DNA of 64,000 bases from the NCBI GenBank assembly GCA_040767605.1, contig JAXGOI010000001.1, positions 824,213 through 888,212 of the forward strand, in the 5' to 3' direction. The position numbers were made by a program, and so were the translations under genes. This stretch comes from Clostridiales bacterium. GTDB lineage: Bacteria > Bacillota > Dehalobacteriia > UBA4068. The notes under the pieces are model-generated. The model saw only the letters and a list, made by a program, of their open reading frames with translations, was not told the origin of the DNA and ran no database searches. Shown here piece by piece: positions 45,043-62,273 of the stretch (position 1 is the first letter of the stretch; each line of letters starts with the position of its first letter).

Positions 45043-45066
45043 AAAGTGTTGCATTGGTAACACTTT
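45043..45066. promoter_or_regulatory. Putative Crp/Fnr operator in the divergent promoter region
   Basis: AAAGTGTT-GCATTGGT-AACACTTT perfect 8-bp inverted repeat. Confidence 0.65.
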
Positions 45067-45117
45067 TTTACTTATTTTAGCATTATAATAAATATATCTC
45101 AATAGGGAGGCATTATT

Positions 45118-45738
45118 ATGAAATATATAACGAGTACAATACGGCTTCTTTTTTTGGCACTTTTTATTTTTCTGATGATAAAGGGGAAAATAATGCTTTG
45201 GCTTGCCTTATATGGCCTAAGCCTTATGGCCGCTTTAATCTTTGGCAGGATCTACTGCGGATATATCTGCCCGATGAATACATTGATGATACCGGTAGAT
45301 AAGCTTGGGCAAAAACTAAAAACCCAGATTGCAAATACGCCAAAATGGCTTAAAAACGGCTATTTCCCCTGGGTTACCCTTATTCTTAGCATAGCATTAA
45401 TTTTAATCTCAAGAAAGCTCTTAAATATTAATTTGCCTATATTACCTCTTTGGCTCATTATTGCCCTTATTATAACCCTTAAATATAAACCGGCGGTATT
45501 TCACAACCTTATTTGCCCCTTCAGCGCTTTACAAAAGCTCTTTGGGCGCTTTGCCCGGCTGGGGAAGAAAGTTAATAAAGATGCCTGTATCGGCTGTAAA
45601 TTATGTGAGGGTGTCTGCCCGTCTAATGCTATTATTGTTCTCCCTGAAGATAAAAAAGCCGTAATCGACAGCAAATTATGCCATCAATGCCAAAATTGCC
45701 GGGAGGTTTGCCCCCAGGGGGCTATTGGGCACCCCTAA
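45118..45738 (+). CDS. Membrane 4Fe-4S binding protein (NapH-like polyferredoxin)
   Basis: GRIYCGYICP, CIGCKLCEGVCP, CHQCQNCREVCP. Confidence 0.88.
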   Translation: MKYITSTIRLLFLALFIFLMIKGKIMLWLALYGLSLMAALIFGRIYCGYICPMNTLMIPVDKLGQKLKTQIANTPKWLKNGYFPWVTLILSIALILISRKLLNINLPILPLWLIIALIITLKYKPAVFHNLICPFSALQKLFGRFARLGKKVNKDACIGCKLCEGVCPSNAIIVLPEDKKAVIDSKLCHQCQNCREVCPQGAIGHP

Positions 45739-46278: not shown

Positions 46279-47292
46279 ATGCAAATAATAAAATCGGGCT
46301 GGGGGTTTTTCCAAAACCAGCTTTTAGGAATGAAGTGGCTGAATACCCTTATCGGCAAAGCCTTAACCGCCTTGGGGCTGGATATTTCCGGCTCTCTGGG
46401 GGGGAGTATTCACTTTTTTATTTACGATATTCTAAAAATTACCGCCTTATTATGTATTCTGATTTTTATTATAAGCTATGTACAAAGCTATTTCCCCCCG
46501 GAGCGCAGCAAAAAAATATTAGGCCGCTTTAGGGGTATTTGGGCAAATTCCATTGCTGCCCTTTTAGGGACTGTAACCCCGTTTTGCTCCTGCTCCTCCA
46601 TACCGATATTTATCGGTTTTACCTCCGCCGGCCTGCCTTTGGGGATTACCTTCTCCTTTCTTATATCCTCCCCAATGGTAGATTTAGGCTCCCTTATTCT
46701 TTTAATGAGCATATTCGGGGCAAAAATTGCCTTTTTATATATAATCTTCGGGCTGATAGTTGCCGTAATTGGCGGCGCCATTATTGAAAAAGCCCATATG
46801 GAAAAATATATCGAAAGCTCTATTTTAAATTCCGGGAGCATAAATAAGGCCTCCCAAAATCTCACAAAAAAAGAGCGCCTTGTTTACGCCGAAAAAGAAA
46901 TGCTTGCTACATTTAAGGGGGTCTTGCCCTATATTTTAGCCGGGGTGGGCATAGGGGCGATTATCCATAACTGGATACCCGAGGCCTGGGTAATATCCCT
47001 TTTGGGGAGGAATAACCCCTTTGGCGTAATTTTGGCGGCGGCAATCGGGGTGCCTATGTATGCGGATATTTTCGGTACAATACCCATAGCCGAGGCTTTG
47101 CTTTATAAGGGGGCTCAGTTAGGCACGGTTTTAGCCTTTATGATGGGGGTAATTACTTTATCCCTGCCGTCTCTTATTATGCTCCGCAAGGCAATTAAGC
47201 CGAAGCTTATGGCCCTGTTTATTGCAGTTTGCTCTATTGGGATTATCCTTGTTGGTTATTTATTTAATATTTTAGAGCCCTTTATATTATAA
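46279..47292 (+). CDS. ArsP-like (DUF318) permease
   Basis: TPFCSCSSIP, FLISSP, GVPMY, LSLPS. Confidence 0.9.
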   Translation: MQIIKSGWGFFQNQLLGMKWLNTLIGKALTALGLDISGSLGGSIHFFIYDILKITALLCILIFIISYVQSYFPPERSKKILGRFRGIWANSIAALLGTVTPFCSCSSIPIFIGFTSAGLPLGITFSFLISSPMVDLGSLILLMSIFGAKIAFLYIIFGLIVAVIGGAIIEKAHMEKYIESSILNSGSINKASQNLTKKERLVYAEKEMLATFKGVLPYILAGVGIGAIIHNWIPEAWVISLLGRNNPFGVILAAAIGVPMYADIFGTIPIAEALLYKGAQLGTVLAFMMGVITLSLPSLIMLRKAIKPKLMALFIAVCSIGIILVGYLFNILEPFIL

Positions 47293-47357
47293 GGCATATT
47301 TATTATTAAAACGCCGGTTTATGCTTAAAATAACCGCAAAATAAGGCTAAAAACAAT

Positions 47358-47398
47358 AAAAAAAGCCGAGGCCCTTTAAAAGAGCCCCGGCTTTTTTT
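47358..47398. terminator. Bidirectional terminator
   Basis: AAAAAAAGCCG...CGGCTTTTTTT between the permease and nagB. Confidence 0.7.
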
Positions 47399-47417
47399 AA
47401 AAATCTAAAAGATATTT

Positions 47418-48185
47418 TCAGATATTTTTTAGTTTGGAGGCCGCTTCTTTATCTAAAATCACATAGCTTTCTCCTTTAAAAAGCTGAATAGCGGAGGCTG
47501 TAATATCCGTAGTTACGCTGCCTTCCAAAGCTTTGGCAATTATATCTGCCTTTTTTATTCCATTAGCCAGCATAATCAGGCTTTTGGCCTCAAGAATAGT
47601 GCCGATACCCATGGTAATTGCAGAATGGGGCATACTCTCCCTTGGAATACCGGCAGCCTTATAAAAAGACTCATAATTATCATCCAGAGTTTGTTTGGTT
47701 AATCTTTCCACTCTGGTTCTAGAAGAGAGACTCGAGCCCGGCTCATTAAAGGCCCAGTGACCGTCGCCCCCTATACCTAAAAGTTGTAAATCTATACCCC
47801 CGGCCTTTTTTATTGCCTCCTCATAGCTTAGGCAAAACTCCTTCGGGTTTTTAGTAAGGCCATGGGGGATATGAATATTTTCCTCTTTAAGATTAATATG
47901 CTTAAAAAACTCCTCCTGCATAAATCTGGCATAGCTTTGATCCATTTCATAAGGCATTGCCATATTTTTGCCTATACCTAAATACTCATCCAGATTAAAT
48001 GTTTTTACCCTTGAAAAATCCAGCCCCTGCTTATGCATTTTAATTAATTCCCGGTAAGTTCCCATAGGGGTACTCCCCGTGGCCAGCCCCAGAACACAAT
48101 CGGGCTTGTTTTTAACCAGCTCCCCGATTTTTTCAGCCGCGGATTTGCTCATTGCCGAATAATCTTCTTTAATAATTATTTTCAT
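47418..48185 (-). CDS. nagB: Glucosamine-6-phosphate deaminase
   Basis: LGLATGSTP, FNLDEY, GIGGDGHWAFNEPG, TMGIGTI; ATG 48185 after AAGGAG. Confidence 0.95.
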   Translation of the reverse strand: MKIIIKEDYSAMSKSAAEKIGELVKNKPDCVLGLATGSTPMGTYRELIKMHKQGLDFSRVKTFNLDEYLGIGKNMAMPYEMDQSYARFMQEEFFKHINLKEENIHIPHGLTKNPKEFCLSYEEAIKKAGGIDLQLLGIGGDGHWAFNEPGSSLSSRTRVERLTKQTLDDNYESFYKAAGIPRESMPHSAITMGIGTILEAKSLIMLANGIKKADIIAKALEGSVTTDITASAIQLFKGESYVILDKEAASKLKNI

Positions 48186-48235
48186 CCGGATTCTCCTTAT
48201 AATAAGCATATTTATTCTTAATTATATTATATCAT

Positions 48236-48565: not shown

Positions 48566-49864
48566 CTAGGCCTGCGCCCTGCCGCACCAGCGGACAATGG
48601 CATTGGTTAAAATTTTAATAGAAAGTATAAGCTGCTCAACTAAAATATACTCATTATTGCCATGGGCGTTTTGATCTATGGAGCCCGGCCCAAAGGCTAT
48701 AGCGGGAATACCCTGTTTATACAGGAAGCTGGCATCATTTACGGCGCTAAAACCCGAAAAAAGGGCGGGTTTTTGAGTTATTTCCTCATAGGCGCCGGCC
48801 AACGCCCGGCAAGCCGGGTGTTCCGGCTCGGTAATATACCCCGGCCAATCATAAAATATTTTAAATTCCGGGGGGTTGGCCTTAAGCCAATCATCCCGCT
48901 GAACCACCGAGTCTATTACATCCCGCACCTCCGCCTCCGCCTCGCTAAAGGGTACCCAGGGAGCATAGGAAAAGCAGCCCTGAACTTGCGCATGGCCGGG
49001 GACGGCTACAATATAATCTCCGGAACGGATTATGGCGGGGACAATGCAAAAAAGCCCCACCCCGCTTTTATCCTTGCCGGGGTAGCCTCCGCCGCCTAAA
49101 ACCCTGTCCCGCCAGCGAAAATTCCACTGAGTCTCTAAATCTTCAAGGGCATCAAGAATTTTTAAGGCTTTTTTAAAGGCATCCACCCCGATATCGCTTC
49201 CGGTTTTTATTCCGAAGGCCTGTGGGTATTTTATTTTATTGGCCTGCGCATTATGTACGGTTTTACCTTTTACATTTAATTCCCAGGCAACAGCCCCCGG
49301 GGATTTTGTATGAAGCTCGCAATCCGTAGGCTCCAGCACAATGGCAAAATCTCCCCGGTGGCCCCTCTTTACTGTTGCGGTGGTTCCTAATATATGCTCG
49401 CAGCGCTCCTCCCCCACAACAGATTCTAAGATTAAATCCCCCATTAGGGGAATATTATTTTCTTTTAAAGCCAGGGCGGCAAAATACATAGCCGTAAGCC
49501 CGCCCTTCATATCTGTTGCCCCTCTTCCGTAAATGGCCCCGTTTCTCAATTGGCCCTGCCAGGGGTCACTTTCCCATAGCTTTAAATCCTCGGGGCTTAC
49601 AGGCACAACATCACAATGGCCGTTAAGAATCAGGCTGGGGGCATTGCCTTTGCCTTTTACGGTGCATACTACATTCGGGCGCAGCTTATCTTTATCCTCC
49701 GCCCAAAAATCCACCCGGCCTAAAGCGGCCTCCTCGCATTTATTCCGAAACCATTCCTGAAAAGGCAGCTCCGCCCCGGTAACAGATTTTTGAGAAATAC
49801 CGTCGCAGCAAAAATTAATTATCTCCCGGCGGTTATCTTCAATCCATTTATATACCTTTTTCAT
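48566..49864 (-). CDS. M20A ArgE/DapE-family deacylase (YlmB-like)
   Basis: LILNGHCDVVP, GRGATDMKGG, GEE, FGPG..AHGNNE; ATG 49864 after GAGGAG. Confidence 0.88.
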   Translation of the reverse strand: MKKVYKWIEDNRREIINFCCDGISQKSVTGAELPFQEWFRNKCEEAALGRVDFWAEDKDKLRPNVVCTVKGKGNAPSLILNGHCDVVPVSPEDLKLWESDPWQGQLRNGAIYGRGATDMKGGLTAMYFAALALKENNIPLMGDLILESVVGEERCEHILGTTATVKRGHRGDFAIVLEPTDCELHTKSPGAVAWELNVKGKTVHNAQANKIKYPQAFGIKTGSDIGVDAFKKALKILDALEDLETQWNFRWRDRVLGGGGYPGKDKSGVGLFCIVPAIIRSGDYIVAVPGHAQVQGCFSYAPWVPFSEAEAEVRDVIDSVVQRDDWLKANPPEFKIFYDWPGYITEPEHPACRALAGAYEEITQKPALFSGFSAVNDASFLYKQGIPAIAFGPGSIDQNAHGNNEYILVEQLILSIKILTNAIVRWCGRAQA

Positions 49865-50004
49865 ATTCGCACTCCTCAAACCCCATAAGGGGCCCTCCTA
49901 AAGCGGCCAGGCCATAGGCAAAAGCCTGTGCATTAAACCTCTTTAAAGAAAGCCCCTTTTAGTTAGTGACGCTAATTAAAATATGCTTTAAATACTCTTA
50001 TAAC

Positions 50005-51171
50005 TTATTTTTTTACGGAAGAAATTGTGCCTTTTACAAACCAATCAATTTTATTATACACATCATCTTTACTGAGGTATTTGCCTTCTTCGCATTTAAG
50101 ATTGCCGTCGTTATCGTATATGGGCCCTTTGTAAACAATGGAGTACATATCGTCTGCGGCAAGCAGTTCAGCATAAACCTCTTCAAATTTATCTCTTACA
50201 TCCTGAGGAACATTTTTGGTGTATTCCTGGGGAATAGCAGCTTCGGTTTCCAAACCGGGGGAGTACATGGTAGGTACAAAGGTGCCGTCATAAATTCTCT
50301 GGAAGGTATCAATATAATATACTTCCCAGTTAAGGAATTCTCCGCCTAAGTAGCTATCCGGGCCAAAATCACGCTGGTCGGCATACTGGCTCATGGCATA
50401 AAGCCCTTTTTCCTGAGCTACCTGAACATGGGAAGGGGTATCGGTATTATTCCAGAGAACATCGCAGCCTGCCTCGGCCAGGCTGTAAGAAGCATCTGTT
50501 TCCGCTGCCGGATCATAGAATGTACCGATATAGATAACAGTCTGGGTAACATCGGGGTTAACGGACTGAGCCCCTAAGAGGAAGGAGTTCTGGCAAACTA
50601 ATACCAGGGGAATAGGATTGGAGCCGACAAAACCAATTTTATTGGTTTTAGTCATCATGCCTGCCATAACACCGTACATATACCAAAGAGAGGTTCTGTC
50701 CGGCCAGAAGGATTCAATATTAGAAGAAGAAATGGAGCCGGAGCAAAGCAAGAACATAGTATCGGGGTAATTGGGGGCAATTTTTTCAACATCAGACTGA
50801 TAAGCTGCGGTTGCAGCAACTACTACATCATATTTATCCTCGCCTAATTGAGTAAAAACCTGTTCTGCAGCTGTACCGGGGGTAACAGGCTCAATGTAAG
50901 TGGTGTCGATAATATCATTAAGGGTTTGCTGAGCCGTTTTACGGGCGGTTTCGTGGCGGTCGCACCAGCCGTCATCACCAACTGCGCCATTATAAACAAA
51001 AGCAATTTTTAATTTTTCTTTACCTGCGCCGCTATTGTCATTATCCCCGGGGTCCTGTGTATCCCCGGTGCTTGCATTTCCGCCGCAGGCGGCGAGGAAC
51101 AACGCTGAAGCAAGAAGCAGTACCACTAATAATCCCAACAGGGGGTAGGCGCCCTTTTTAGCTATCTTCAT
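50005..51171 (-). CDS. BMP-family ABC substrate-binding lipoprotein
   Basis: Lipobox LAAC; AFVY.G.VGDDGW; AGMMTKTNKIGFV. Confidence 0.9.
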   Translation of the reverse strand: MKIAKKGAYPLLGLLVVLLLASALFLAACGGNASTGDTQDPGDNDNSGAGKEKLKIAFVYNGAVGDDGWCDRHETARKTAQQTLNDIIDTTYIEPVTPGTAAEQVFTQLGEDKYDVVVAATAAYQSDVEKIAPNYPDTMFLLCSGSISSSNIESFWPDRTSLWYMYGVMAGMMTKTNKIGFVGSNPIPLVLVCQNSFLLGAQSVNPDVTQTVIYIGTFYDPAAETDASYSLAEAGCDVLWNNTDTPSHVQVAQEKGLYAMSQYADQRDFGPDSYLGGEFLNWEVYYIDTFQRIYDGTFVPTMYSPGLETEAAIPQEYTKNVPQDVRDKFEEVYAELLAADDMYSIVYKGPIYDNDGNLKCEEGKYLSKDDVYNKIDWFVKGTISSVKK

Positions 51172-51218
51172 TATATCAGCCTCTTTTCTTTTTTTTTATA
51201 TAAACGGGGTAAAGGAAC

Positions 51219-52193
51219 TTATTTACCCTCGCGTATATACGGTACTCCTAGGGTTCGGGGAGCAACATTAACTTTGCGCTTATTTAACCAGCTAACTAAT
51301 ACTAAAATAATAATGGGCAGAAGATAGGGTATCATACGGAGGAAATAAGGGGGTATGCCGACACCTAAAGTTTCCAGGCGAAGGCCTAAAGAGTGGAATA
51401 TCCCAAAGATATATGCCCCCGCTACTGCGTTTAAGGGGTTCCAAAGGGAGAAATTCACCAGGGCAATGGCCAGCCAGCCGCGGCCGGCAGTCATACCCTC
51501 AACCCAGGAAAGGCTGTAGCCAAGGGATAAATACGCGCCCCCCATGCCGGCAAAAACGCTGCCTATAATTACGGCAATCATACGGATGCGGTAAATATTA
51601 ATCCCGGCGCTATCCACAGCCCCCGGCTGGTCGCCGGTGGCCCTAAGATAAAGGCCGTATTTGGTGCGGTAGATAAAAAACCAGGCTGCCACAGCCAGCA
51701 GAAGGGCAATAATAACCATTTCGTCCTGCTGCAGGAAGAGCTGTAATAACGGCATATCATTTAAAGCCTCCAGCTTAAAGGATTTAAAGGCATCCGGCGG
51801 AACCTTGCCTAAATAGGGCTTACCCAAAAGGCTGGAAAGGCCTATGCAAAAAATTATAAAGGCAATACCCGTGGCCACCTGATTGGCCCTAAGCTTAACC
51901 AGGAGAAATGCCAATAAAGCTCCAAGTATGGCGCAGAAAACCATAGCCCCTAAAAGACCCAGCCAGCGGTTACCGGTCATATTGGTAAACATGAAACCGC
52001 TCATGGCGCCCATTAGCATCATACCCTCAACACCAATATTCATAACGCCGGATTTTTGCGTGATAATTTCTCCGATGGCTGCGAAGAGTATGGGCGTACC
52101 GGCGGTAATACCGGCGGATAAAACATAGACAATGAATCTTAAATCAATCTCCCCCACCTTGTTTTCCCTCCTCTTTTTTAGCTTTTTTACCAA
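51219..52193 (-). CDS. Nucleoside-type ABC transporter permease
   Basis: GVMNIGVEGMMLMGA, MTAGRGWLAIA; true start probably the GTG near 52157. Confidence 0.9.
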   Translation of the reverse strand: MVKKLKKRRENKVGEIDLRFIVYVLSAGITAGTPILFAAIGEIITQKSGVMNIGVEGMMLMGAMSGFMFTNMTGNRWLGLLGAMVFCAILGALLAFLLVKLRANQVATGIAFIIFCIGLSSLLGKPYLGKVPPDAFKSFKLEALNDMPLLQLFLQQDEMVIIALLLAVAAWFFIYRTKYGLYLRATGDQPGAVDSAGINIYRIRMIAVIIGSVFAGMGGAYLSLGYSLSWVEGMTAGRGWLAIALVNFSLWNPLNAVAGAYIFGIFHSLGLRLETLGVGIPPYFLRMIPYLLPIIILVLVSWLNKRKVNVAPRTLGVPYIREGK

Positions 52194-53376
52194 GGGGCGT
52201 AAATAAATCCTTTATCATCCAGATCAGCCCCGTATTAGGGGCATCATCATCTAGGAAATCCGCCTCCTGGGCATCGTCATCATCCTTGGTTCCCTTGGGC
52301 ACCCAGGAAATCTTATAGAAAGTGAAGATTTCCCCCGCCAGAATGAAGAAAAGAATCAGGCCTTTAATAATTTGCACAATGGAGCTTTGAAAGCCCGCCA
52401 TTTGTAATTTAAAGCCCACAACCGTAAAGCCCGCGAATAAATAGCTTACAACCAGCACCACAAGGGGATTAAGACGGGAAACCCAGGCAATTACAAAGCC
52501 CGATAAACCATAATCCGAAGCAAGCTGCGGCCGGATACGATGGGAAACCCCGCATACCTCCAGAAAACCGGCCATCCCGGCTAAGCATCCGCTGACAAAC
52601 ATGGCAATAAAGAAAATCTTTTTAATATTAATCCCGGAATAGCGGGCGCTGGGGGTAGATAACCCCACGGCCCTCATTTCATAGCCGAAAACAGAGTTCC
52701 TCAATAAAAACCACACCGCAATAATGGCCAGTATTCCTATAACAAAGCCCCAGTGTAGCCTCCCGGCATTGGGTATTCGGGGTATAACGGAATTTGCAAA
52801 TATGGTAATGCTCTGGGGGGAAGTTGAAGTTGTATCCCGCCAGGCCAAATTAGAGAGATAGCCGATCCAATATCCGGCAACGCTGTTTAAAAGCACCGTT
52901 GTCAGGATTTCATTAATCCCAAAATAAATCCGGGGCAAAACAGATACATAACAGTAGAGGCCGGCTGCCGCCATAGAAGCAATAAAAATTATAGGGATCA
53001 TAATAAACCAGGGAAGATTAGGAAAGGCTATGCCAAGACCAGCCGCCACAGAAGCGCCTACCAAAAACTGACCCTCTACCCCAACATTCCAAAGCCCGGC
53101 CTTTGCCGCCACCACCACAGCCATAGCACAGAGGGAGAAAGAACTTACATATACTAAGAGGCTAAGAATACCGCCTTTTGTAAAATAGGTTTCTTTAAAG
53201 GTTTTTAAAATAATATTTAGGGCATCGTACCCGGCAATTTGTAAAACCAGAATACTCACCAGCAAAGAGAGAAAAACTGCCGCAACGGAAACCAGAATTA
53301 CGGATAAGGAATTTGCGGTTCGCCTTCTTTCAATTTTAAGCAATTTCGCCCCCTCCTTCCCCTTGGGCCCCGGCAT
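52144..53376 (-). CDS. Nucleoside-type ABC transporter permease
   Basis: WNVGVEGQ, NEILTTVLLN, GYEMRAVG; true start probably the TTG near 53343. Confidence 0.9.
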   Translation of the reverse strand: MPGPKGKEGAKLLKIERRRTANSLSVILVSVAAVFLSLLVSILVLQIAGYDALNIILKTFKETYFTKGGILSLLVYVSSFSLCAMAVVVAAKAGLWNVGVEGQFLVGASVAAGLGIAFPNLPWFIMIPIIFIASMAAAGLYCYVSVLPRIYFGINEILTTVLLNSVAGYWIGYLSNLAWRDTTSTSPQSITIFANSVIPRIPNAGRLHWGFVIGILAIIAVWFLLRNSVFGYEMRAVGLSTPSARYSGINIKKIFFIAMFVSGCLAGMAGFLEVCGVSHRIRPQLASDYGLSGFVIAWVSRLNPLVVLVVSYLFAGFTVVGFKLQMAGFQSSIVQIIKGLILFFILAGEIFTFYKISWVPKGTKDDDDAQEADFLDDDAPNTGLIWMIKDLFTPLGKKAKKEEGKQGGGD

Positions 53377-54892
53377 CGGCCAGACCCATCATGGCATAAC
53401 CCAGGGCATCTAATGTCCATTGATCATTGGCTTTCTTCTGAGTAAGGCTGCCTTTATACATAACGGCAATTTGATCCGAAACCTCAAAAAGCTCGTCTAA
53501 ATCTTCCGAAATTAGAAGTATGGCATAGCCCTTTTTCTGCTGCTCCAGTAAAAGGTCATGGACTCTCTCTACGGCGGAAACATCCAGGCCGTAGGTGGGG
53601 TGCACCGCCACAATAACTTTTGGGTTCTCATTTATTTCCCGGGCAAAAATCAGCTTTTGAATATTGCCGCCGGATAAAAACCGAATTGGCAGATAAGGGG
53701 TGGCCATTCTGACATCAAATTCCCGCATCAGCCGGTTACCAAAGCTTACCACCTCTTTTTGGTCTATCATTCCCCCCTTGCGCACAGGCGCCCGGTCATA
53801 AGATTTTGAAATAATATTTTCATAACAGGTAAAATCGGCAACGCATCCTACCCCTATTCTGTCTTCCGGTACATGGCTTACCCCCGCGTTTATAAAATCC
53901 TGGGGGTTTTTATTGGTTAATTCCTGCTTATCTACATAAATAGCGCCGCAGGTAACCTGGTGCAGGCCCGTAAGGCATTCCGCCAGCTGAGATTGGCCGT
54001 TACCGGATACCCCCGCAATACCCAATATCTCGCCGGAGGCCACCTCCAGGGAGACATTATCTAAAAGCAATTGTCTTTTTTCCCCCACGGCGGAAATATT
54101 ATCCACTTTAAGCATGGCATCGCCTTTGCCGTTGGAGAGGGTTTTTTTCCGGGTAGAGGCCCTCATTTCGCGGCCTACCATCATATGGGCCAGCTCATGG
54201 GCATTGGTATCTTCCTTATTCATGGTTTTGATAACCTCGCCCCGGCGCAAAATTGTAACTCTGTCGGCAATCTGAATAACCTCATTTAGCTTATGGCTGA
54301 TAAAGATTACTGTTTTGCCCTGCTCCTTCATTTGCATAAGGTTTTTAAACAGCTCCTGGCTTTCCTGAGGGGTTAAAACCGAGGTTGGCTCGTCCAAAAT
54401 CAGAAGATCAACATCCCGGTAAAGCATTTTTACAATTTCCACCCTTTGCATTTCACCCGCGGAAAGCTTAGAAACTATTGCCTCGGGCTGAATAGGCAAA
54501 TTAAATTTCTCCGTAACATCCATAAGCTTTTTATATAGCTTGCGCTTGCGGATGATTCTGCCCAAATCCTCATGGCCCATAAGTATATTCTCCGCAACGG
54601 AAAGGGTTTCCACAAGTTTAAAGTGCTGGTGTACCATGCCGATACCCAGGCAGCAGGCATATCTGGGGTTTTTAATATACTCCTCCTTGCCGTTAAAAAG
54701 TATCTTGCCTTCATCCGGTATATACAGCCCTATTAAAATATTCATTAAAGTGGATTTCCCTGCCCCGTTTTCCCCCAATAGGGCATGAATTTCGCCCCGT
54801 TTGATTTTAAGGTTGATGTCTTTATTAGCCGCAACCTTGTTAAAGCGCTTGGTTACATGCTGTAACTCTAAAATATATTCCGTGTTGGCCAA
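53336..54892 (-). CDS. ABC transporter ATP-binding protein (two NBDs, CUT2 type)
   Basis: GENGAGKST, LILDEPT, LSGGNIQK. Confidence 0.95.
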   Translation of the reverse strand: MANTEYILELQHVTKRFNKVAANKDINLKIKRGEIHALLGENGAGKSTLMNILIGLYIPDEGKILFNGKEEYIKNPRYACCLGIGMVHQHFKLVETLSVAENILMGHEDLGRIIRKRKLYKKLMDVTEKFNLPIQPEAIVSKLSAGEMQRVEIVKMLYRDVDLLILDEPTSVLTPQESQELFKNLMQMKEQGKTVIFISHKLNEVIQIADRVTILRRGEVIKTMNKEDTNAHELAHMMVGREMRASTRKKTLSNGKGDAMLKVDNISAVGEKRQLLLDNVSLEVASGEILGIAGVSGNGQSQLAECLTGLHQVTCGAIYVDKQELTNKNPQDFINAGVSHVPEDRIGVGCVADFTCYENIISKSYDRAPVRKGGMIDQKEVVSFGNRLMREFDVRMATPYLPIRFLSGGNIQKLIFAREINENPKVIVAVHPTYGLDVSAVERVHDLLLEQQKKGYAILLISEDLDELFEVSDQIAVMYKGSLTQKKANDQWTLDALGYAMMGLADAGAQGEGGGEIA

Positions 54893-54948
54893 CCTAAATC
54901 ACTTCCTTCTTTTCAGTATACATCTGCGCTTAACCCCCAAATCCTGCC

Positions 54949-56031
54949 TTAATTGGCTCCTCCCATAGCATCGGCAGCGATTATAGCGTTTAGAATTTCC
55001 CCGGCGGTAATATTATTACCCTCATGATGCAAATAAGGGTCATTATAAGCGGCTATTGCCACATCATGCAGTTTTTCCCGGCTAATGCCTTCCAGATGCA
55101 ATTCCTCAAAAGTAGTGGGTAAACCCACTTGTTTATAAAAATCATAAAGCTCAGCCAATTCCCCCGGGGGGGCATCCGTAAGATGCAGCTCGGCTAAAAT
55201 CCCGAAGGCTACGATTTCCCCATGGAGACAGCTATGAATTTCAGGCAGTATAGTCAGCCCATTATGTATGGCATGAGCCGCTGCCAGTCCGCTGCCTTCA
55301 AAAGCGATACCGGCGGCTAAAAGGTTAATTTCTATTATCCGCTCAACAGCGGGGGTAACGGCCTTTTTCTCATAAGCGAGCTTTGCGGCAAGGCCGTATT
55401 CTAATATGCTCTTATAACAGTATTCACTAAGGGCCAAAGCGCAAAAGGTCTGCCTGGCGGAGAGGGAATTTTGGGCCCCGGTTTTTTGGCAGGCCCTGCC
55501 TTCAAAATAAGTTGCCAGAGCATCCCCCATACCGGCCACAAAATAGCGCACCCCGGAACCGATAATAATTTCATTATCCACCAGTAAAACATCGGGGCTG
55601 TGCTTTTCATAATATACGGATTCGGCAATACCCTCGGGGGTATAAATAACGGAGCAAGCGCTGAAAGCGGCGCTGCTTGCCGCTACACTGGGAACCATTA
55701 TTACCCTTAAATCCAGCTTGTCCCCGATAACTTTAGCGGTATCCACCACTTTACCGCCGCCTAGGCCGACAATTACCGTATAACCCCCCTGGGAAACCTC
55801 CTCAATAAGGCGGTTAATCTCCTGCCAGCAGCAATGAGCGGAAAAGGCTCTGACGGTATAAAGATTCTTCCAGCCCCGGGCTTCGGCTAAAGAAATCATA
55901 GACGGGGTAACCAGTAAAAAAGCCTTACCGCCATAAAGGTCAATAAGCCCGGGTAACTCCCCTATGGCATTATTACCCTGAATATACTTTCCCGTAAAGT
56001 ATGATTTTCTTAAGTCCATTGCATTTGCCAC
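54949..56031 (-). CDS. Glycerol-dehydrogenase (GldA)-family oxidoreductase, divergent paralog
   Basis: GLGGGK, AGMGDALATYFE, AAAHAIHNGLT, HGEIVAFG; GTG 56031 after GGGAGG; ASTDAP replaced by AASSAA. Confidence 0.85.
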   Translation of the reverse strand: MANAMDLRKSYFTGKYIQGNNAIGELPGLIDLYGGKAFLLVTPSMISLAEARGWKNLYTVRAFSAHCCWQEINRLIEEVSQGGYTVIVGLGGGKVVDTAKVIGDKLDLRVIMVPSVAASSAAFSACSVIYTPEGIAESVYYEKHSPDVLLVDNEIIIGSGVRYFVAGMGDALATYFEGRACQKTGAQNSLSARQTFCALALSEYCYKSILEYGLAAKLAYEKKAVTPAVERIIEINLLAAGIAFEGSGLAAAHAIHNGLTILPEIHSCLHGEIVAFGILAELHLTDAPPGELAELYDFYKQVGLPTTFEELHLEGISREKLHDVAIAAYNDPYLHHEGNNITAGEILNAIIAADAMGGAN

Positions 56032-56429
56032 AGCAGTGCCTCCCGTGCTTATTAAATTATCCTGAGTAAAAACTGCTGCCTTAAACCCCCTCATCATATA
56101 TGCACGGATAAAGGGAATATTCCGGCGCCCGTGTTCAGTACAAGTGTACTTAAAGCGACAGTTTTATTTTACATGAATTATAATGCCTAATGCTATAATT
56201 GTCAAGGGCTCCTGAACCTTAAAATGCACTACAACTCCTTCTTTTCTATTGGAAATTTATTCTAAAGCCCTGCAAAAGGGCTGCAAAAAAACTTTTTATT
56301 GTAGCTTTGCTTTAAACATTTAAAAAATTTCCAGCACTAATAGTTATTTATACTGGACAAACTTATCCCCTGCATGATACAATATTTCCATAATAATTAT
56401 CACTTAAATCATTAAAAGGGGGTAAACCA

Positions 56430-57533
56430 ATGGCCATAGTTATACAATCACCATGGAAATATGTTCAAGGACCGCATGTATTTGAAAACCTTGGGGAATA
56501 TGCCCGTACCTATGGGGATAATTACCTGATTTTAACCAGTAAAACTCCGCTGAAATTCTTTAAAGAGAAAATAGAAAAAAGCTTTCAGGAATGTAATATT
56601 AAAGGAACCTTTGAGGTTTTTAACGGTCAATGCACTCTTAAAGAAATTGCCAGAGTTGAAGAGCTGGTAAAAGAGAACGGCTATAATGCCATAATCGGCT
56701 TGGGAGGCGGCAAGGTATTGGATGTTTCCCGCTGCGTAGCGGGGAATTTAAAGCTCCCCTTAGTTATTGCTCCCACTATTGCCTCAACAGACGCACCCAC
56801 CAGCTCGGATTCCGTAGTTTATAATGAAGACGGCACGGTGGCCTTTGCTCCCGTATATCCTCATAATCCTCATCTGGTAATTGTAGACAGCCATGTTATA
56901 GCAAATGCCCCTGTTCGTATGCTGGTAGCCGGCATGGGAGATGCTCTGGCAACTTATTTTGAGGCCAGGGTTTGCGCCGAAATGAATTCCCCCAGCACAT
57001 TGGGGCACGGTCTTTCCGTAGCTGCTCTGGCTTTGGCAAGAGCCTGTTATGATACCCTTATGGAGCATGGTTATAAAGCTAAAATTGCCAATGCCAATAA
57101 AAAAGTAACCCCCTCTTTAGAGAAAATTATTGAAGCCAATACCTATCTCAGCGGCATTGGTTTTGAAAGCGGCGGCCTTTCCTTATGCCATGCCATGCAT
57201 GACGCTTTAACCGCTATTCCCGAATGCCATAAATTCCTCCATGGGGAAAAGGTAGCCTTTGGGGCTGTAACCATGCTGGTAATGGAAAACCGCCCCCAGG
57301 AGGAAATCGAAAAAACTCTTGCCTTCTGCGCCAGTGTTGGGCTCCCTATTACCCTGGCCCAGCTGGATATAACAGAAAATGTGGAGGAAAAACTCCGCAA
57401 GGTTATACACATAGCCGTACCCAAAGACCATGCCCTTTATCGTATTCCCCCCGGCATAACTGAAGATGCGGCGGTTGGGGCGGTTTTAGTAACAGACCAA
57501 TTAGGCAGGGACTTTTTAGCAAAGCAAAAATAA
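56430..57533 (+). CDS. Glycerol-dehydrogenase (GldA)-family oxidoreductase
   Basis: SPWKYVQG, IASTDAP, AGMGDALATYFEA, GFESGGL..HAMH, HGEKVAFG. Confidence 0.9.
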   Translation: MAIVIQSPWKYVQGPHVFENLGEYARTYGDNYLILTSKTPLKFFKEKIEKSFQECNIKGTFEVFNGQCTLKEIARVEELVKENGYNAIIGLGGGKVLDVSRCVAGNLKLPLVIAPTIASTDAPTSSDSVVYNEDGTVAFAPVYPHNPHLVIVDSHVIANAPVRMLVAGMGDALATYFEARVCAEMNSPSTLGHGLSVAALALARACYDTLMEHGYKAKIANANKKVTPSLEKIIEANTYLSGIGFESGGLSLCHAMHDALTAIPECHKFLHGEKVAFGAVTMLVMENRPQEEIEKTLAFCASVGLPITLAQLDITENVEEKLRKVIHIAVPKDHALYRIPPGITEDAAVGAVLVTDQLGRDFLAKQK

Positions 57534-57571
57534 AACACCATCCTCAGTATTCCATCGCCTGTTCTATTCAG

Positions 57572-57609
57572 GTTAAAGCCGGAGCCTTTAGGCTCCGGCT
57601 TTAACTTTT
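57572..57609 (+). terminator. Intrinsic terminator
   Basis: GTTAAAGCCGGAGCC-ttta-GGCTCCGGCTTTAAC followed by a T-run. Confidence 0.85.
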
Positions 57610-57812
57610 ATGCTCTTTCCGGTATTTATACCCCTTTGGCCTTTTATACCGGCTTTAGCTTTTATTATCTGCTTTTATTTTATACCCCTCCCTTACTTTT
57701 ATACAAAAGTAGCGGGGTAATTATTCGCATAAATTATTAACTGTAAAGAGGCTTCGTCATAGGCATCGGCCAGCTATCTAATCATATAAATCTCCGGTAT
57801 ATTTATAAATGC

Positions 57813-57845
57813 GAAACCCCGCGCGGCTATGCCGCGCGGGGTTTC
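57813..57845. terminator. Strong GC hairpin downstream of the HisB-like gene
   Basis: GAAACCCCGCGCGGC-tat-GCCGCGCGGGGTTTC. Confidence 0.75.
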
Positions 57846-57867
57846 TGAGGAATGCGGATTTGACTTA

Positions 57868-58530
57868 TTATACAAGGGAGGCGTCGGCGATGCCTTCCTC
57901 GCCATAATACGGATTATGGCTGGCTTTACGCCAGGGGTTGGCTTCATAAGCCATACGCAGAGCTTCACCCACAGCGTGGAAAGCGGATTCCCAAGCATGG
58001 TGAGCATCTCTGGATTTTAAGAAATCTAAATGCAGGGTTGCAGGGAAGCCCTGGAAGAAACCTTCCATAAAGCCTTCCATATCAGCAAATTGCATATCTT
58101 CAACCATTTCAATTCTTCTTACTTTATCGGTATAGGTAATAAAGACATTCCGGCGGCCTTCCATGCTCACCATTGCGCTGGCCAGGGATTCATCCAGGCC
58201 GAATAAGGCAAAACCGTTAATGTTCATGCCCTCATTATTGAGCTTGGTATAGAAGAGCTTTTTCAAGGCGGCGCCTAAGGTTATGGCAACGTCTTCGGCA
58301 ATGGTATGAGTGGAACGCCATTTGCCGCACTCAACTTTACAGCCAATGGACATGCAAAGACCCCAGGAAAAGGTGTCAAGCATATGATCCAGGAAATGAA
58401 TGGTTGTATCCGGGCGCAATTCCGGCCGGTAATCTGTAGTTACCTCTATGGTAATATCAATTTCTTGGGTCTTCTTTTGGAGCTTAACATAAGTAGGGGT
58501 CTCTTTATGCAAAGTAAATAAATGTGCCAT
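57868..58530 (-). CDS. Divergent imidazoleglycerol-phosphate dehydratase (HisB/IGPD)-fold protein
   Basis: FLDHML, HTIAEDVAITLG, LDESL, GR, HHAWE; lacks PSTKG; not in a his operon. Confidence 0.8.
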   Translation of the reverse strand: MAHLFTLHKETPTYVKLQKKTQEIDITIEVTTDYRPELRPDTTIHFLDHMLDTFSWGLCMSIGCKVECGKWRSTHTIAEDVAITLGAALKKLFYTKLNNEGMNINGFALFGLDESLASAMVSMEGRRNVFITYTDKVRRIEMVEDMQFADMEGFMEGFFQGFPATLHLDFLKSRDAHHAWESAFHAVGEALRMAYEANPWRKASHNPYYGEEGIADASLV

Positions 58531-58896
58531 TTTGCATCGTCCTTTCTTTTTTAATTTTTAATCATATGGCGCGAGGGATAACTATACCTGTGCAACCATC
58601 TAATTTAACAAGAATATAACACCAATATAGTCTTTTGTCAAGTATCTTTATACAAAAAAACGATATTCCGCCACTTTTATTAATCTTTTATTTCCGACAT
58701 AAATCTGTTATCTTTGGGGTATGCCAGTTTTACTGGTGTTACGGTACAAAAAGACAAAATTTTTTATTTGGCGAGGCTTAAAATATGCTTAACCTAGTTG
58801 GACATTAAATTTTTTAGCTTTTGCAATATATACTGGACATAATCAGGAAAATAGATTAAAATATATTTTAAGATAATTTCTAAGGAGGAGCATTTA

Positions 58897-59499
58897 ATGG
58901 TTGATGTTGGGAAGAGACTTACTGAGTTAAGAAAGGGAAAAAATCTATCCATGGCTGCGCTTGCTAAAATTGTTGGGGTTTCCAGAAGCTTAATCAGCCA
59001 GGTGGAAAAAAACGATGCCTACCCCTCCTTACAAACATTAAGTAAAATTGTGGAGGCTCTGGGCACATCCATGAGCGAATTTTTCCGCGTTGAGCCTAAT
59101 GCCAAAAATGAAAATGCTTTAATTGTACGCTCCGATGCCCGGGATGTAATCTATATGCAGGATTCAGAAATGAAATATTATATTCTTTCCCCCAGCGCCT
59201 ACCGGGATATGGAGTTTTTAATTTCCGAATTCCCCCCTTATAGGGAAGGCGCCGCCATTGATTATTTCCGTCATGAGGGCCATGAGTATTTCTATGTGCT
59301 TAAGGGCCAGCTCCAGCTTACCCTGGGGGATGAAACATATTTGCTGAATGAAGGAGACAGCGGCGGCTTTGATGCAGGGCAAACTCATTATTTTGTAAAT
59401 AAAACCAATGAAATTGCCAGGCTGATTGTGGCGGCCACCGAGCCCTGCGTACAAATAAACCCGGAGAAAATCTCCGGCCCGGGGGAAATACAGGTATAA
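58897..59499 (+). CDS. XRE-HTH + cupin transcriptional regulator
   Basis: LAKIVGVSRSLISQVE..YPSL; HEGHE..YVLKG; EGDS..F...H. Confidence 0.92.
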   Translation: MVDVGKRLTELRKGKNLSMAALAKIVGVSRSLISQVEKNDAYPSLQTLSKIVEALGTSMSEFFRVEPNAKNENALIVRSDARDVIYMQDSEMKYYILSPSAYRDMEFLISEFPPYREGAAIDYFRHEGHEYFYVLKGQLQLTLGDETYLLNEGDSGGFDAGQTHYFVNKTNEIARLIVAATEPCVQINPEKISGPGEIQV

Positions 59500-59818: not shown

Positions 59819-61006
59819 TCAGGCTTTGGCAATAGTTTTGCCAAATTCAACCGCCGCTTTTTTAGAATCCTCATCCGGATTCCACAATGTTTTATAACCC
59901 TCGCCAATAACTTTAAAGCCTGCATCCGCCATTAATTCATTAATTAATTTAACAGATTCTCCGCTCCAGCCATAGCAGCCGAAGCCGGCGGCTTTTTTAT
60001 TTTTAAATTTAAGGGATTTTAAATAGCAAATTAAGCCGCCCACCGAGTGTAAAATATTATTCCCCATAGTTGGCGAGCCCACTACCACGGTTTTAGATTT
60101 AAAAATTTCTGTTACAATATCATTTATATCTTTTTTAGCCAAGCTAAAGGTTTTTACAACAACCTCTTTATCCTCTTGAATAATACCCTCCGCTATTCTT
60201 TCGGCCAGCTCTTTTGTGCCGTTCCACATAGTATCATAAACAATTGTAATTTGATTTTCCTGATAATCATTGGCCCATTGGGCATATTTTTCAACTATTT
60301 GCATGGGGTTATCCCGCCAGATAACACCATGGCTGGTTGCAATAATATCTATGGGCAAATTCAGGGCAATTACCTCATCCAGCTTTTTCCGGAGAATAGC
60401 GCTGAAAGGCGTCAGGATATTCGCATAATATTTAATACATTCCTCAAATAAATTGCACTGGTCTACCTGATCGTTAAAAAGCTTTTCATTGGCATAATGC
60501 TGCCCGAAGGCGTCATTGCTGAATAAAATATTATCCCCAGTTAAATATGTTGCCATGCTGTCCGGCCAGTGGAGCATTTTCATTTCCACAAAAACCAGGC
60601 TCTTGCCATTGCCGATATCCAGGGAATCCCCGGTTTTAACTACTTTAAAATTCCAGTCTTTATGGTATTGCCCCTTTAAGGATTTTACCGCGCTTTCCGT
60701 ACAATATATAGGTGTATCCGGAATATGTTTCATTAATTCGGGGAGGGCGCCGCTATGGTCTACCTCGCCATGGTTTGCGATAATATAATCGATTTTATTT
60801 AAATCAATTTCTTTGGCTAGATTATTAACAAACTCCTCTGCAAAGGGCATCCAAACCGTATCAATTAAGACGGTTTTTTCCTCCTCAACTAAATAAGAAT
60901 TATAGGTTGAGCCTTTATGAGTGGAAAATTCATCGCCGTGAAATTTCTGCAAATCCCAATCCACTTTACCAACCCAGCAAACATTATTTTTAACTCTCTT
61001 TTTCAT
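59819..61006 (-). CDS. fprA: Flavodiiron protein (FprA, O2/NO reductase)
   Basis: GSTYNSYL, NHGEVDH, LHWPD, NDAFG, YDTMWNGT, YGWSGE. Confidence 0.95.
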   Translation of the reverse strand: MKKRVKNNVCWVGKVDWDLQKFHGDEFSTHKGSTYNSYLVEEEKTVLIDTVWMPFAEEFVNNLAKEIDLNKIDYIIANHGEVDHSGALPELMKHIPDTPIYCTESAVKSLKGQYHKDWNFKVVKTGDSLDIGNGKSLVFVEMKMLHWPDSMATYLTGDNILFSNDAFGQHYANEKLFNDQVDQCNLFEECIKYYANILTPFSAILRKKLDEVIALNLPIDIIATSHGVIWRDNPMQIVEKYAQWANDYQENQITIVYDTMWNGTKELAERIAEGIIQEDKEVVVKTFSLAKKDINDIVTEIFKSKTVVVGSPTMGNNILHSVGGLICYLKSLKFKNKKAAGFGCYGWSGESVKLINELMADAGFKVIGEGYKTLWNPDEDSKKAAVEFGKTIAKA

Positions 61007-61412
61007 AAAGCAACACTTCCTTTCGTTCCGTATAAAAGTAGATTATCCGTATTATATTTTTATTATACCCTCCAAAGGGGATATATACAATCCCGTTTAA
61101 AATATTGCGCCTTGGTAGCTTAAAAAATAAAACCTTAAACCGGATAGTAAGCATATTAATATATCTTATACAAAAATAAAAAGAGGCCAGGTAAATTAAG
61201 ACCGCGTGGGAACCCTTTGTATAAAGGATTTTATGCTGTAATAAACGAATAATAAGCTATAGACCTTAACTGAAACCCATATAACATATAATACAGAAGC
61301 TTACACCAAAAAAACATTATTTGCCATAATGCGGAGGGGAAACCTAGTTTGTTAAAATATAAATATAAGAATTAGGCATTCGGCAGCTTTGCAGTTATGG
61401 GGGGGGGTATAG

Positions 61413-62273
61413 GTGCTTCCGGTTAAAAAACTATATACAATCGGCCAGGTATCACAAATTACAGGCATTAGCAGCAGAATGCTGCGGTATTACGAAAAAA
61501 AGGAAATACTTATGCCGGCGGAGAGAAGCCCGGAAAACAATTACCGCCTTTATACGGAAAAACAATTAGAAGAATTGCTGCTATTTAAGGAGCTTAACCG
61601 GGTAGGGTTTTCAATGGAGAACCTTATAAATATTTTTGAAGACCGTGATTTAAGCTCTTTGCAAAAAGAACTGGAAAATAAAATCCAGCTTGCAAATAAA
61701 GAAATTCTCGATGCAATCCGTAATTATGTCCATATAAATGAACTCCATTTTAGGGTGCTAAAATCCCTAAACATTTTGCAAAGCAAAAATACTATTGCAT
61801 CTAATTCGGTTATTAATTTAATTGATATGCCCGATCAAGAAGTAGTTTTTATCCGCTATTATGGTCTATTTAACAGCAGAGAAATATTTATGGAAAAGGT
61901 TGGGGAATTATATCGCTTAATAAAAAAATATAATCTGTTTACCTTAGGCCCCCTATTTGTTATCTTTCATGATCAATACCTTACATCATTCAATATGGTA
62001 AAGGGAGATGTGGAAATTTGTGTACCTCTGGAAAACACGGATACAAAATGCCCTAATATCAGAACCCTTAAGGCTTTCAGGGCCATTTCACATCTGCTTG
62101 TGGGTCCATATTCGCAGCTTGAAACCACATATAAAGCGCTGGAACTCTGGGGCAGGGAACATAATTTTAAGCTGTCGGGCTCTTCTCTTGAAGAATATGT
62201 AGTAAACCCCACAATGACTTCCGTAGATAATAATTATGCAACCCAAATATATTTGCCAATAATAAAGGATTAA
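61413..62273 (+). CDS. MerR-family regulator with GyrI-like effector domain (BmrR type)
   Basis: YTIGQVS...MLRYYE..NNYRLY; C-terminal GPYSQL, EEY. Confidence 0.9.
   Translation: MLPVKKLYTIGQVSQITGISSRMLRYYEKKEILMPAERSPENNYRLYTEKQLEELLLFKELNRVGFSMENLINIFEDRDLSSLQKELENKIQLANKEILDAIRNYVHINELHFRVLKSLNILQSKNTIASNSVINLIDMPDQEVVFIRYYGLFNSREIFMEKVGELYRLIKKYNLFTLGPLFVIFHDQYLTSFNMVKGDVEICVPLENTDTKCPNIRTLKAFRAISHLLVGPYSQLETTYKALELWGREHNFKLSGSSLEEYVVNPTMTSVDNNYATQIYLPIIKD

Follow-up and report, generated by a model that had tools for sequence, protein, structure and literature searches.

In the DhaB/DhaT system, a glycerol dehydratase works with 1,3-propanediol dehydrogenase, and the glycerol dehydrogenase GldA acts on hydroxyacetone and 1,2-propanediol. 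Thiamin pyrimidine salvage brings together the ThiXYZ importer, the deformylase YlmB, and TenA. Imidazoleglycerol phosphate (IGP) dehydratase (IGPD; HisB, EC 4.2.1.19, PF00475) appears in the searchable part of the literature solely in connection with its one function in histidine synthesis and as a target of herbicides and antibacterials. The HisD family, according to the available sections of two papers, has diversified to sulfonates and includes HpsN, which oxidizes a 1,2-diol to a 2-hydroxy acid (PMC11382572, PMC12814064). The locus considered here is a cluster of nine genes, including one for an IGPD-like protein (IGPDl) and two for glycerol-dehydrogenase-family enzymes (GldA_a and GldA_b), at positions 48,566 to 59,499 of a 64,000-nucleotide stretch (the window) of contig JAXGOI010000001.1 from a Clostridiales bacterium. 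The source is an anaerobic-digester bacterium whose genome is a single contig of 1.86 Mb that is 96.5% complete. In the full-text literature accessible to searching, supplements aside, neither an IGPD paralogue with another role nor a pathway of imidazole-glycerol or imidazole-acetol catabolism was found, and the gene combination, which the first-pass annotation of this DNA could not match to a described pathway, appears undescribed within that literature.

The reading favored here, with a probability of about 0.5, is that of an expressed uptake and catabolic cluster in which a dehydratase of the IGPD fold, put to a new use, and a dedicated enzyme of GldA type act on a non-phosphorylated heteroaryl polyol, most simply one of the imidazole-glycerol type. 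On this reading, the evolutionarily conserved core is a neofunctionalized IGPDl together with a putatively NAD-dependent GldA_a. A non-phosphorylated N-heterocycle, most simply imidazole, with a vicinal-diol or glycerol-like side chain would be imported, perhaps in N-acylated form, and an M20-family enzyme would deacylate the substrate if it is acylated. IGPDl would remove the hydroxyl next to the ring by IGP dehydratase chemistry to give an alpha-hydroxyketone (an “acetol”), which the GldA enzymes would reduce or oxidize. The chemistry of each step, the part played by M20, and the redox direction are what we infer from these genes, and a non-phosphorylated imidazole-type polyol is the best guess at a substrate that, as the first-pass annotation had cautioned, still cannot be read from the sequence. 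The main reason to favor an imidazole ring is that two his-derived paralogues, IGPDl and a HisD-like protein, have been recruited together in other lineages. As a whole, the catabolic pathway proposed in that annotation is partly supported. Its nine genes are placed and assigned to the same families by open reading frames (ORFs), Pfam, and NCBIfam, as follows:

48566..49879, minus strand: M20 ArgE/DapE-family deacylase (M20; PF01546, 104.5 bits; TIGR01910, 228.9 bits, cut-off 217.6)
50005..51171, minus strand: BMP-family lipoprotein substrate-binding protein (BMP; PF02608, 112 bits; lipobox LAAC)
51219..52193, minus strand: ABC permease 1 (BPD_transp_2; PF02653, 147 bits)
52144..53376, minus strand: ABC permease 2 (BPD_transp_2; PF02653, 115.8 bits)
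53336..54892, minus strand: ABC ATPase of CUT2 type with two ATP-binding domains (PF00005 in two stretches)
54949..56097, minus strand: GldA_a, a diverged glycerol-dehydrogenase-family enzyme (NF006941, 361.1 bits, cut-off 336)
56430..57533, plus strand: GldA_b, a more typical glycerol-dehydrogenase-family enzyme, monocistronic (NF006941, 462.3 bits, cut-off 336)
57868..58530, minus strand: IGPD-like protein, IGPDl (PF00475, 94.1 bits, cut-off 27)
58897..59499, plus strand: XRE-HTH plus cupin regulator, divergent from IGPDl (PF01381, HTH_3; PF07883, Cupin_2)

An IGPD-fold protein outside histidine biosynthesis

The AlphaFold2 model of IGPDl (pLDDT, 91.2) confirms the predicted IGPD fold: all 29 Foldseek matches at E values up to 0.001 are IGPD chains (23 listed), with TMq values of 0.67 to 0.76. 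Against the 13 NCBIfam HisB equivalog models, the best score is 99.6 bits, under every cut-off (189 to 443). A Protein Atlas search with IGPDl returned IGPD-family clusters and nothing else. About 105 clusters, mostly 220 to 222 residues long and drawn from 5.8 billion proteins, match at E values of 5.9e-43 or lower with at least 44% identity over most of the query; past this rare clade, scores drop abruptly to canonical IGPD, with E values of 1.5e-12 or higher and at most 35% identity. In a tree of 38 rows, the window protein falls in a 27-row clade (support, 100/99) nested in a larger “HT-type” group (33 rows, 100/99), and a long branch separates it from canonical IGPD. By record titles, the clade spans at least seven phyla, and it goes unmentioned in the accessible text of a family-wide network paper (PMC10978614).

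Residue roles were taken from the available parts of Bisson et al. (2015; PMC4509728), with numbering mapped by motif and 2f1d ranges, and residues were counted in an alignment of 26 clade members, with seven IGPD rows as the canonical comparison. In that source, the residues binding the IGP phosphate are Q51, H55, R99, R121, K177, S199, and K201. The catalytic glutamates E21 and E173 (E23 and E181 in the window protein) are invariant in 26/26 clade members. Among the eight residues that we take to be the IGPD metal ligands, and apply as such to IGPDl, H47, H73, E77, H169, and H170 are invariant in 26/26 and H145 is kept in 25/26, whereas H74 is Thr in 26/26, giving a first motif of H-T where 7/7 canonical rows have an H-H pair.

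At the phosphate site, the sole retained residue is the equivalent of R121 (R126 in the window protein), which is invariant in 26/26. The Q51 site holds T or S in 24/26 members and N or E in the other two; H55 is replaced in all 26 (G in 23); R99 gives way to I, G, A, L, or V; and the K177 site has H, M, T, R, or Q, with no Lys and with Arg in 5/26. The C-loop with S199 and K201 is gone, and the conserved tail NNPYYAEEGIADASL (N-N-P-Y-Y-A-E-E-G-I-A-D-A-S-L) stands in its place, while an arginine, R127, has been gained. In total, 33 columns are invariant over the 26 sequences, which are 45 to 81% identical to the window protein. The clade also differs from archaeal HT-type IGPDs, lacking the Arg of the W-R motif at the H55 site, the K177-site Arg (except in the five members that keep it), and the C-loop V-K-G. 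The lack of three basic groups in the vicinity of the phosphate site would point to a non-phosphorylated substrate, and the loss of the phosphate-binding residues speaks for the same suggestion in the first-pass annotation. IGPDl is probably a dehydratase with a binuclear metal center that takes off the hydroxyl adjacent to a ring of imidazole type.

The archaeal HT-type proteins occur within complete his operons of metagenome-assembled genomes (MAGs). One (L034:2757-3374) lies in the order hisG-hisD-IGPD-hisH-hisA-hisF-hisIE, and the other (L035:9974-10612) lies in the same order from hisD on, with no hisG among the genes scanned. They look like a divergent but isofunctional class of IGPD, of which no description was found.

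Searches of the source genome gave 0 matches each for HisG and PRA-CH, both of which were found in 14/14 control genomes. Because these two are absent, IGPDl cannot serve de novo histidine synthesis, and the cluster is not one for histidine biosynthesis. The earlier observation that no other his genes lie nearby holds for the scanned 43.6 to 64 kb and, for HisG and PRA-CH, for the whole genome. That annotation had also regarded status as the genome's only IGPD as evidence against its proposal; IGPDl is literally that, being the one PF00475 gene, yet this does not refute the proposal because the genome has no upper pathway in which the enzyme could act. The genome has one HisD-like gene (508 bits; C1:1407164-1408393, L065:9977-11251), which stands alone beside a MerR-type gene and nrdD, 520 kb from the cluster, and two hisC-family (TIGR01141) matches over the cut-off, both in unrelated contexts. 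A lone strong His_biosynth-family (HisA/HisF-like) gene (218 bits; C1:251517-252194, L066:9485-10210) lies at the end of a purM-purN-purH-purD operon.

Within the order to which the organism belongs, IGPDl is present in 5/51 genomes, the source genome included, and the four other carriers (loci L011, L012, L015, and L016) all lack HisG and canonical IGPD. Outside the order, HisG is found in 16/22 further carrier genomes and canonical IGPD (187 to 230 bits) in 16/22, besides IGPDl and copies of a third IGPD type (type 2, described below; 77 to 105 bits). Several of these carriers have canonical IGPD and HisG on one contig, a few kilobases apart, and in three genomes checked, the HisD-like gene adjoining IGPDl is a second copy beside the HisD of the his operon. 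No his operon is found among the 26 clade loci. IGPDl is an additional paralogue that does not replace canonical IGPD, and its retention both with and without the his pathway fits a separate function. The first-pass claim that the IGPD-fold gene is not biosynthetic here is sustained by the missing HisG and PRA-CH and by the canonical IGPD of the 16 other carriers.

Dehydrogenase partners and other neighbors of the clade

Neighborhoods were compared at 30 loci of species-representative genomes, 26 of them clade loci, by tblastn with the window proteins plus Pfam. ORF picking was crude, with wrong-strand frames in high-GC loci that were partly corrected, and two C-terminal fragments of 53 to 56 residues (L036 and L037) were excluded from all counts. 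GldA_a-type genes with 60 to 64% identity lie directly downstream of IGPDl in 5/26 clade loci (L003, L010, L011, L013, and L016). Within the order, a GldA_a type scoring about 500 bits is present in four of the five IGPDl genomes (G000, G046, G047, and G049) versus 0/46 others, these genomes being relatives and not independent samples.

The motifs GGGK, GMGDAL, HAxH, and LHGE are invariant across six aligned sequences, including both GldA proteins; GGGK is presumably the nucleotide motif and D...H...H the metal motifs. GldA_a has SSAA in place of the STDAP of GldA_b, and neither protein reaches the Escherichia coli-type equivalog level (NF047954, 267 bits for GldA_a and 435 for GldA_b, cut-off 700). 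An alignment scan with GldA_a (AAAHAIHN pattern) yielded, among the matches listed, ordinary GldA genes of 49% identity or less and was uninformative on the GldA_a subfamily. One order relative has a second, partial GldA_a-like frame (G049:C20:87574-88347; 52% identity over query residues 30 to 287) with one in-frame TAA, which is probably a pseudogene copy.

HisD-like genes adjoin IGPDl in five clade loci (L015, L020, L026, L027, and L028) and in the sister locus L030. The HisD-like protein of the source genome is 50 to 52% identical to those of L020, L026, and L027, all Lachnospiraceae loci; it carries G-G-Y-P-L, and its common motif with the IGPDl-linked proteins is G-x-Y-P-L. HpsN-type C3-sulfonate chemistry was considered for the HisD-like neighbors and rejected, the sulfonate-binding His of G-R-Y-A/S-H being absent; PDB match scores did not separate HisD from HpsN for these proteins. 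A Zn-dependent alcohol dehydrogenase (Zn-ADH) is found near IGPDl in six clade loci and a short-chain dehydrogenase/reductase (SDR) in four. Counting GldA, HisD-like, Zn-ADH, and SDR genes together, at least one NAD(P) alcohol dehydrogenase lies within three genes of IGPDl in 14/26 clade loci (15/26 when two 2-hydroxyacid dehydrogenases in L018 are counted as well), and twelve loci have no dehydrogenase partner. The neighbor contexts track subclades of the tree.

Other recurrent neighbors are NCS1 and APC permeases, CUT2 or NMT1-type ABC systems, xanthine-dehydrogenase-family subunits (including the large subunit), amidohydrolases, HutD, LarA-like proteins, thiamine pyrophosphate (TPP) enzymes, and aminotransferases. 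Ornithine carbamoyltransferase (OTCase) occurs in three clade loci; in L023 it adjoins an amino-acid-kinase-family gene. Such neighbors are typical of N-heterocycle or amino acid catabolism. Single-protein scans with IGPDl found two loci among genome contigs and three, none of them useful, among metagenome contigs.

Three loci have MtmB-like genes near IGPDl (L021:2711-6142, L032:2609-6128, and L031:7459-9769), each with a ferredoxin-domain gene. In L021 and L032, a CUT2 ABC system comes immediately after the MtmB-like gene, and IGPDl, a Zn-ADH, and a divergent OTCase come next; both loci also have a pterin-binding gene. In L031, MtmB-like and B12-binding genes directly precede IGPDl and a Zn-ADH. 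These arrangements suggest an N-methylated substrate in the three lineages. The type 2 IGPD (H-L, W-R-S, and V-A-G for V-K-G) is found at L015:3473-4105 and L028:11975-12610, two genes after IGPDl with the HisD-like gene between them, so that two IGPD paralogues share one operon. Because IGPD active sites are built from several chains, mixed oligomers of IGPDl and type 2 are conceivable.

Transcription units, import, and deacylation

Judged by strand, promoter-like sites, and hairpins, the cluster comprises four transcription units and not one operon. The importer operon is transcribed on the minus strand in the order GldA_a, ATPase, permease 2, permease 1, BMP, and M20. GldA_a, at its head, is separated from the ATPase gene by a 56-nt gap on the same strand with no terminator-like site between them. 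The sites are as follows:

56177..56205, minus strand: promoter-like site before GldA_a, TTGACA-17-TATAAT (12/12)
56346..56359, plus strand: shared 14-nt motif ATWTATACTGGACA, copy 1, overlapping the -35 of the GldA_b promoter-like site
57572-57605: perfect 16-nt palindrome 3' of GldA_b
57813..57845, no strand assigned: perfect 15-nt inverted repeat, terminator-like, just past the IGPDl stop codon
58613..58641, minus strand: promoter-like site before IGPDl, TTGACA-17-TATATT (11/12), with a TG extension
58826..58839, plus strand: shared 14-nt motif, copy 2, overlapping the -35 of the XRE-cupin promoter-like site

Both palindromes sit in the convergent spacer between GldA_b and IGPDl. The same spacer contains a 22-nt direct repeat (57595-57616 and 57649-57670; 86% identity, 54 nt apart). 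A relative of the shared motif with one mismatch, ATACTTGACAA, is found at the -35 of IGPDl, and the 11-mer core TATACTGGACA has two copies in the whole 1.86-Mb genome, both within this cluster. The motif was picked out post hoc and is a weak link between the units. An Rfam search of 46 to 62 kb (E values up to 1) gave seven subthreshold matches, none of them upstream of cluster genes, and no riboswitch or leader. The XRE-cupin regulator misses the PuuR equivalog (NF007408, 92.2 bits, cut-off 211).

The GC content of each of the nine genes is 0.45 to 0.50, compared with 0.36 to 0.43 for the genes on either side and a genome mean of 0.431, and the block ranks in the top 5.6% of 10-kb windows. 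The stretch was found in anaerobic-digester runs, with flat coverage of about 10.8 in the DNA run; runs from wastewater and landfill in which it had a small share were left out of the analysis. The RNA evidence comes from two metatranscriptome runs of the same study as the probable DNA source and is hence not independent; the contigs show the presence of RNA, neither levels nor single transcripts, and cannot rank expression. IGPDl alone is spanned by RNA contigs 57854-58592 and 57854-58590 in the two runs, both of which stop at 57854, near the 15-nt inverted repeat. GldA_b alone is spanned by single contigs in each run (56416-57558 and 56406-57557), one contig (49930-52911) covers BMP and permease 1 and extends into permease 2, and another (58892-59431) covers the regulator gene. 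M20 is covered in parts, GldA_a and the ATPase thinly, and the NagB stretch (46967-47900) by no RNA contig in either run, differences from which no conclusion is drawn.

One further gene on the same strand lies downstream of M20, across a 357-nt gap:

47418..48209, minus strand: NagB, glucosamine-6-phosphate deaminase (TIGR00502, 261.9 bits, cut-off 236.9)

Its membership in the cluster is doubtful. The GC content of NagB (0.409) is like that of the flanks and unlike that of the block. The sole 20-pair terminator-like hairpin on the minus strand of the scanned stretch lies 3' of it (47399-47357). Farther out, the flanks (43637-45738 and 59819-62273) form a neighborhood of oxidative or nitrosative stress genes that is unrelated to the cluster, encoding flavorubredoxin (NF008887, 673.6 bits, cut-off 635), hemerythrin, a NapH-like ferredoxin, and regulators of Crp/Fnr type and of MerR/GyrI-like type.

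The first-pass annotation had proposed import of a heterocycle, and the nearest solved relatives of the binding protein do bind free purine bases, not sugars: AtzT (6pi5, 189.5 bits, with guanine) and a Brucella protein (3s99, 185.4 bits, with adenine modeled). The binding protein is assigned to this branch of the BMP family, whose ligands are flat bases of purine type. In the accessible part of its description, AtzT binds guanine and also adenine and 2-hydroxyatrazine (PMC6834077). The aromatic sandwich of AtzT is kept, with Y45 corresponding to W69 and W194 to F218. Among the guanine contacts, N218 is kept, and S97, E165, and N220 are replaced by Thr, Leu, and Asp, respectively; overall, of six AtzT side-chain contacts, one is identical, three show conservative changes, and two are changed. 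This pattern suggests that the ligand is a flat heterocycle but neither guanine nor adenine. The nearest NCBIfam model for the ABC ATPase is a “putative B6 ABC” ATPase (475.5 bits, cut-off 670).

Among the 5.8 billion proteins, the binding protein has five clusters at 65% identity or more. Three singletons, an IGPDl (P0008, 79%), a BMP (P0126, 65%), and an M20 (P0191, 67%), are each recorded on one contig of 26,688 bp, and an M20 (P0190, 68%) and a BMP (P0122, 73%) are recorded on a contig of 3,468 bp; we infer that each set lies on one and the same contig. If so, the trio persists in a relative diverged to 65 to 79% protein identity. The 26,688-bp contig would then be the only other co-occurrence of IGPDl with BMP and M20. 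Recurrence of the cluster in other genomes, on which the first-pass proposal depended, is partial: it is seen for GldA_a at the five clade loci and apparently for the trio on this contig but not for the importer and M20 at the 30 loci. A BMP scan of genome contigs gave one distant locus.

M20 belongs to the ArgE/DapE subfamily at the level of TIGR01910 and reaches none of the ArgE, DapE, YgeY, or other listed equivalog cut-offs (e.g., PRK06915, 227.9 bits, cut-off 428). The analogy with YlmB drawn in the first-pass annotation is weakened by the lack of TenA: PF03070 has 0 matches in the source genome, compared with matches in 6/14 control genomes. ThiC was likewise not found in this genome, and thiamin pyrimidine salvage was rejected for it on these two grounds. 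A relative has a BMP transporter 49% identical to that of the window (L059, G048:C12:184645-204644), flanked by genes for a PreT/PreA-like dihydropyrimidine dehydrogenase, a family III coenzyme A (CoA)-transferase, two TenA proteins, a Zn-ADH, and an aldehyde:ferredoxin oxidoreductase. The two TenA genes follow the transporter within about 1.6 kb, and the locus may be a pyrimidine-type catabolic or salvage cluster.

Alternative readings and relation to known systems

Several observations weigh against the favored reading. IGPDl and GldA_b form transcription units of their own, apart from the importer operon, and the cluster contains no kinase, ring-opening, or other downstream enzyme. By tblastn, BMP and M20 occur at 0/30 species-level IGPD-like loci, the one M20 match being of 27% identity, 7 kb away, and on the opposite strand; given these absences, the nine genes do not form a widely conserved unit. 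IGPDl proteins of 81 to 82% identity are found on 65- and 70-kb contigs, sizes that correspond to no BMP or M20 match, which makes the link of IGPDl to BMP and M20 loose. Of the two GldA genes at first tied to IGPDl, GldA_a is a recurrent partner, but an orthologue of GldA_b lies near no IGPDl at the 30 loci, and no conserved link connects the two. In L008, the nearest relative at species level (83% identity), IGPDl stands without any partner gene, and the clade neighborhoods are very diverse, including corrinoid methyltransferase clusters, so that one substrate for the whole clade is unlikely. The archaeal HT-type IGPDs inside his operons share the change of H74 to Thr and also lack Q51, H55, and R99, and these changes alone therefore do not exclude IGP as a substrate.

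Phosphate-free histidine salvage is an unlikely alternative. IGPDl would make imidazole-acetol from imported imidazole-glycerol or a close relative, a HisC-family aminotransferase would lead to histidinol, and the orphan HisD-like enzyme would lead to histidine, bypassing the missing upper pathway. The genome does hold the HisD-like gene and the two TIGR01141 matches that such a route needs, HisD-like genes adjoin IGPDl in six loci, the HisD-like protein of the source genome shares the G-x-Y-P-L motif and 50 to 52% identity with those of L020, L026, and L027, all four order relatives with IGPDl are without HisG and canonical IGPD, and the loss of phosphate-binding residues fits non-phosphorylated intermediates. 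However, HisD is missing from three genomes that have both IGPDl and GldA_a (G046, where GldA_a lies on a different contig, G047, and G049), and the 16/22 other carriers with HisG and canonical IGPD need no salvage. In the source genome, both HisC-family genes are in unrelated contexts and HisD is 520 kb off, and the conserved partner is a GldA-type dehydrogenase, which would be superfluous to the route.

The cluster could also be a mosaic of unrelated neighbors, namely, a purine-like base importer with M20, an ordinary glycerol dehydrogenase, and an IGPDl unit, with no nine-gene pathway at all; this, too, seems improbable. The four transcription units, the absence of BMP and M20 from 30/30 loci, the placement of the 49%-identical transporter of G048 among quite different genes, and the lack of a GldA_b orthologue near any IGPDl all speak for it. 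Against it stand the position of GldA_a, the specific partner of IGPDl, at the head of the importer operon, the M20, BMP, and IGPDl orthologues apparently sharing one contig in a diverged relative, the promoter motif common to the units, the uniform, raised GC content over the nine genes, and the coverage of every unit in the same RNA runs. That IGPDl is a degenerating leftover from a former his operon, or has no catalytic activity, is very hard to credit. The his pathway has been lost from this genome and one metal ligand (H74) is replaced, but the 33 invariant columns include both catalytic Glu residues and six metal ligands (the seventh is kept in 25/26), the reading frame is unbroken and has a promoter-like site and a hairpin of its own, the gene is covered by RNA contigs, and the clade, present in at least seven phyla, coexists with canonical IGPD in 16/22 genomes.

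The favored reading, of an uptake and catabolic cluster for a heteroaryl polyol, may extend beyond this locus, although the broader form is more tentative. The IGPD fold would have a second natural function, in which a clade without the phosphate site dehydrates free heteroaryl vicinal diols in anaerobes, with a coevolved GldA or, in other lineages, a HisD, Zn-ADH, or SDR partner, as a module of N-heterocycle fermentations; the window would contain one complete pathway with importer, deacylase, and regulator. If true, this would provide enzymologists with a defined case of neofunctionalization and point to a heterocycle-polyol substrate taken up by anaerobes; IGPDl, its GldA partner, and the binding protein are small and soluble. 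It would also supply an annotation rule, in which an HT motif plus an NPYY tail means “not HisB,” that would avert false calls of histidine prototrophy in gut, rumen, and digester genomes.

Compared with HisB/IGPD, IGPDl has the fold, the two catalytic glutamates, R121, and all but one of the eight metal ligands in common but differs in having Thr for H74, a new conserved tail, and none of the other phosphate-holding residues, and it is found both where the pathway is missing and, beside a canonical copy, where the pathway exists. The archaeal HT-type IGPDs resemble it in the HTIAED motif and in lacking canonical Q51, H55, and R99, and they are its nearest outgroup in the tree; unlike IGPDl, they keep the W-R Arg, the K177-site Arg, and V-K-G and lie between hisD and hisH. 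The diversified HisD/HpsN family has a parallel in the HisD-like paralogues that accompany IGPDl in the five clade loci and L030, but their G-[RKG]-Y-P-L motif differs from the G-R-Y-A/S-H of HpsN and the G-S-A-P-L of E. coli-type HisD.

Like AtzT and 3s99, the binding protein is a lipoprotein that keeps the aromatic sandwich and N218, although it does not preserve the pattern of hydrogen bonds to guanine or adenine. Thiamin pyrimidine salvage is similar in coupling ABC import of a formylated heterocycle to deacylation by an M20 enzyme, but the binding protein here is of BMP type and not NMT1 type, and genes for GldA and IGPD-like proteins have no place in that pathway. With DhaB/DhaT, the cluster shares the pairing of a polyol dehydratase with an NAD enzyme of the Fe-ADH superfamily that would act on the carbonyl product, and an acetol, the product class of IGPD, has the functional group on which GldA enzymes work. 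The dehydratase here, however, has the IGPD fold and is neither a B12 nor a glycyl-radical enzyme.

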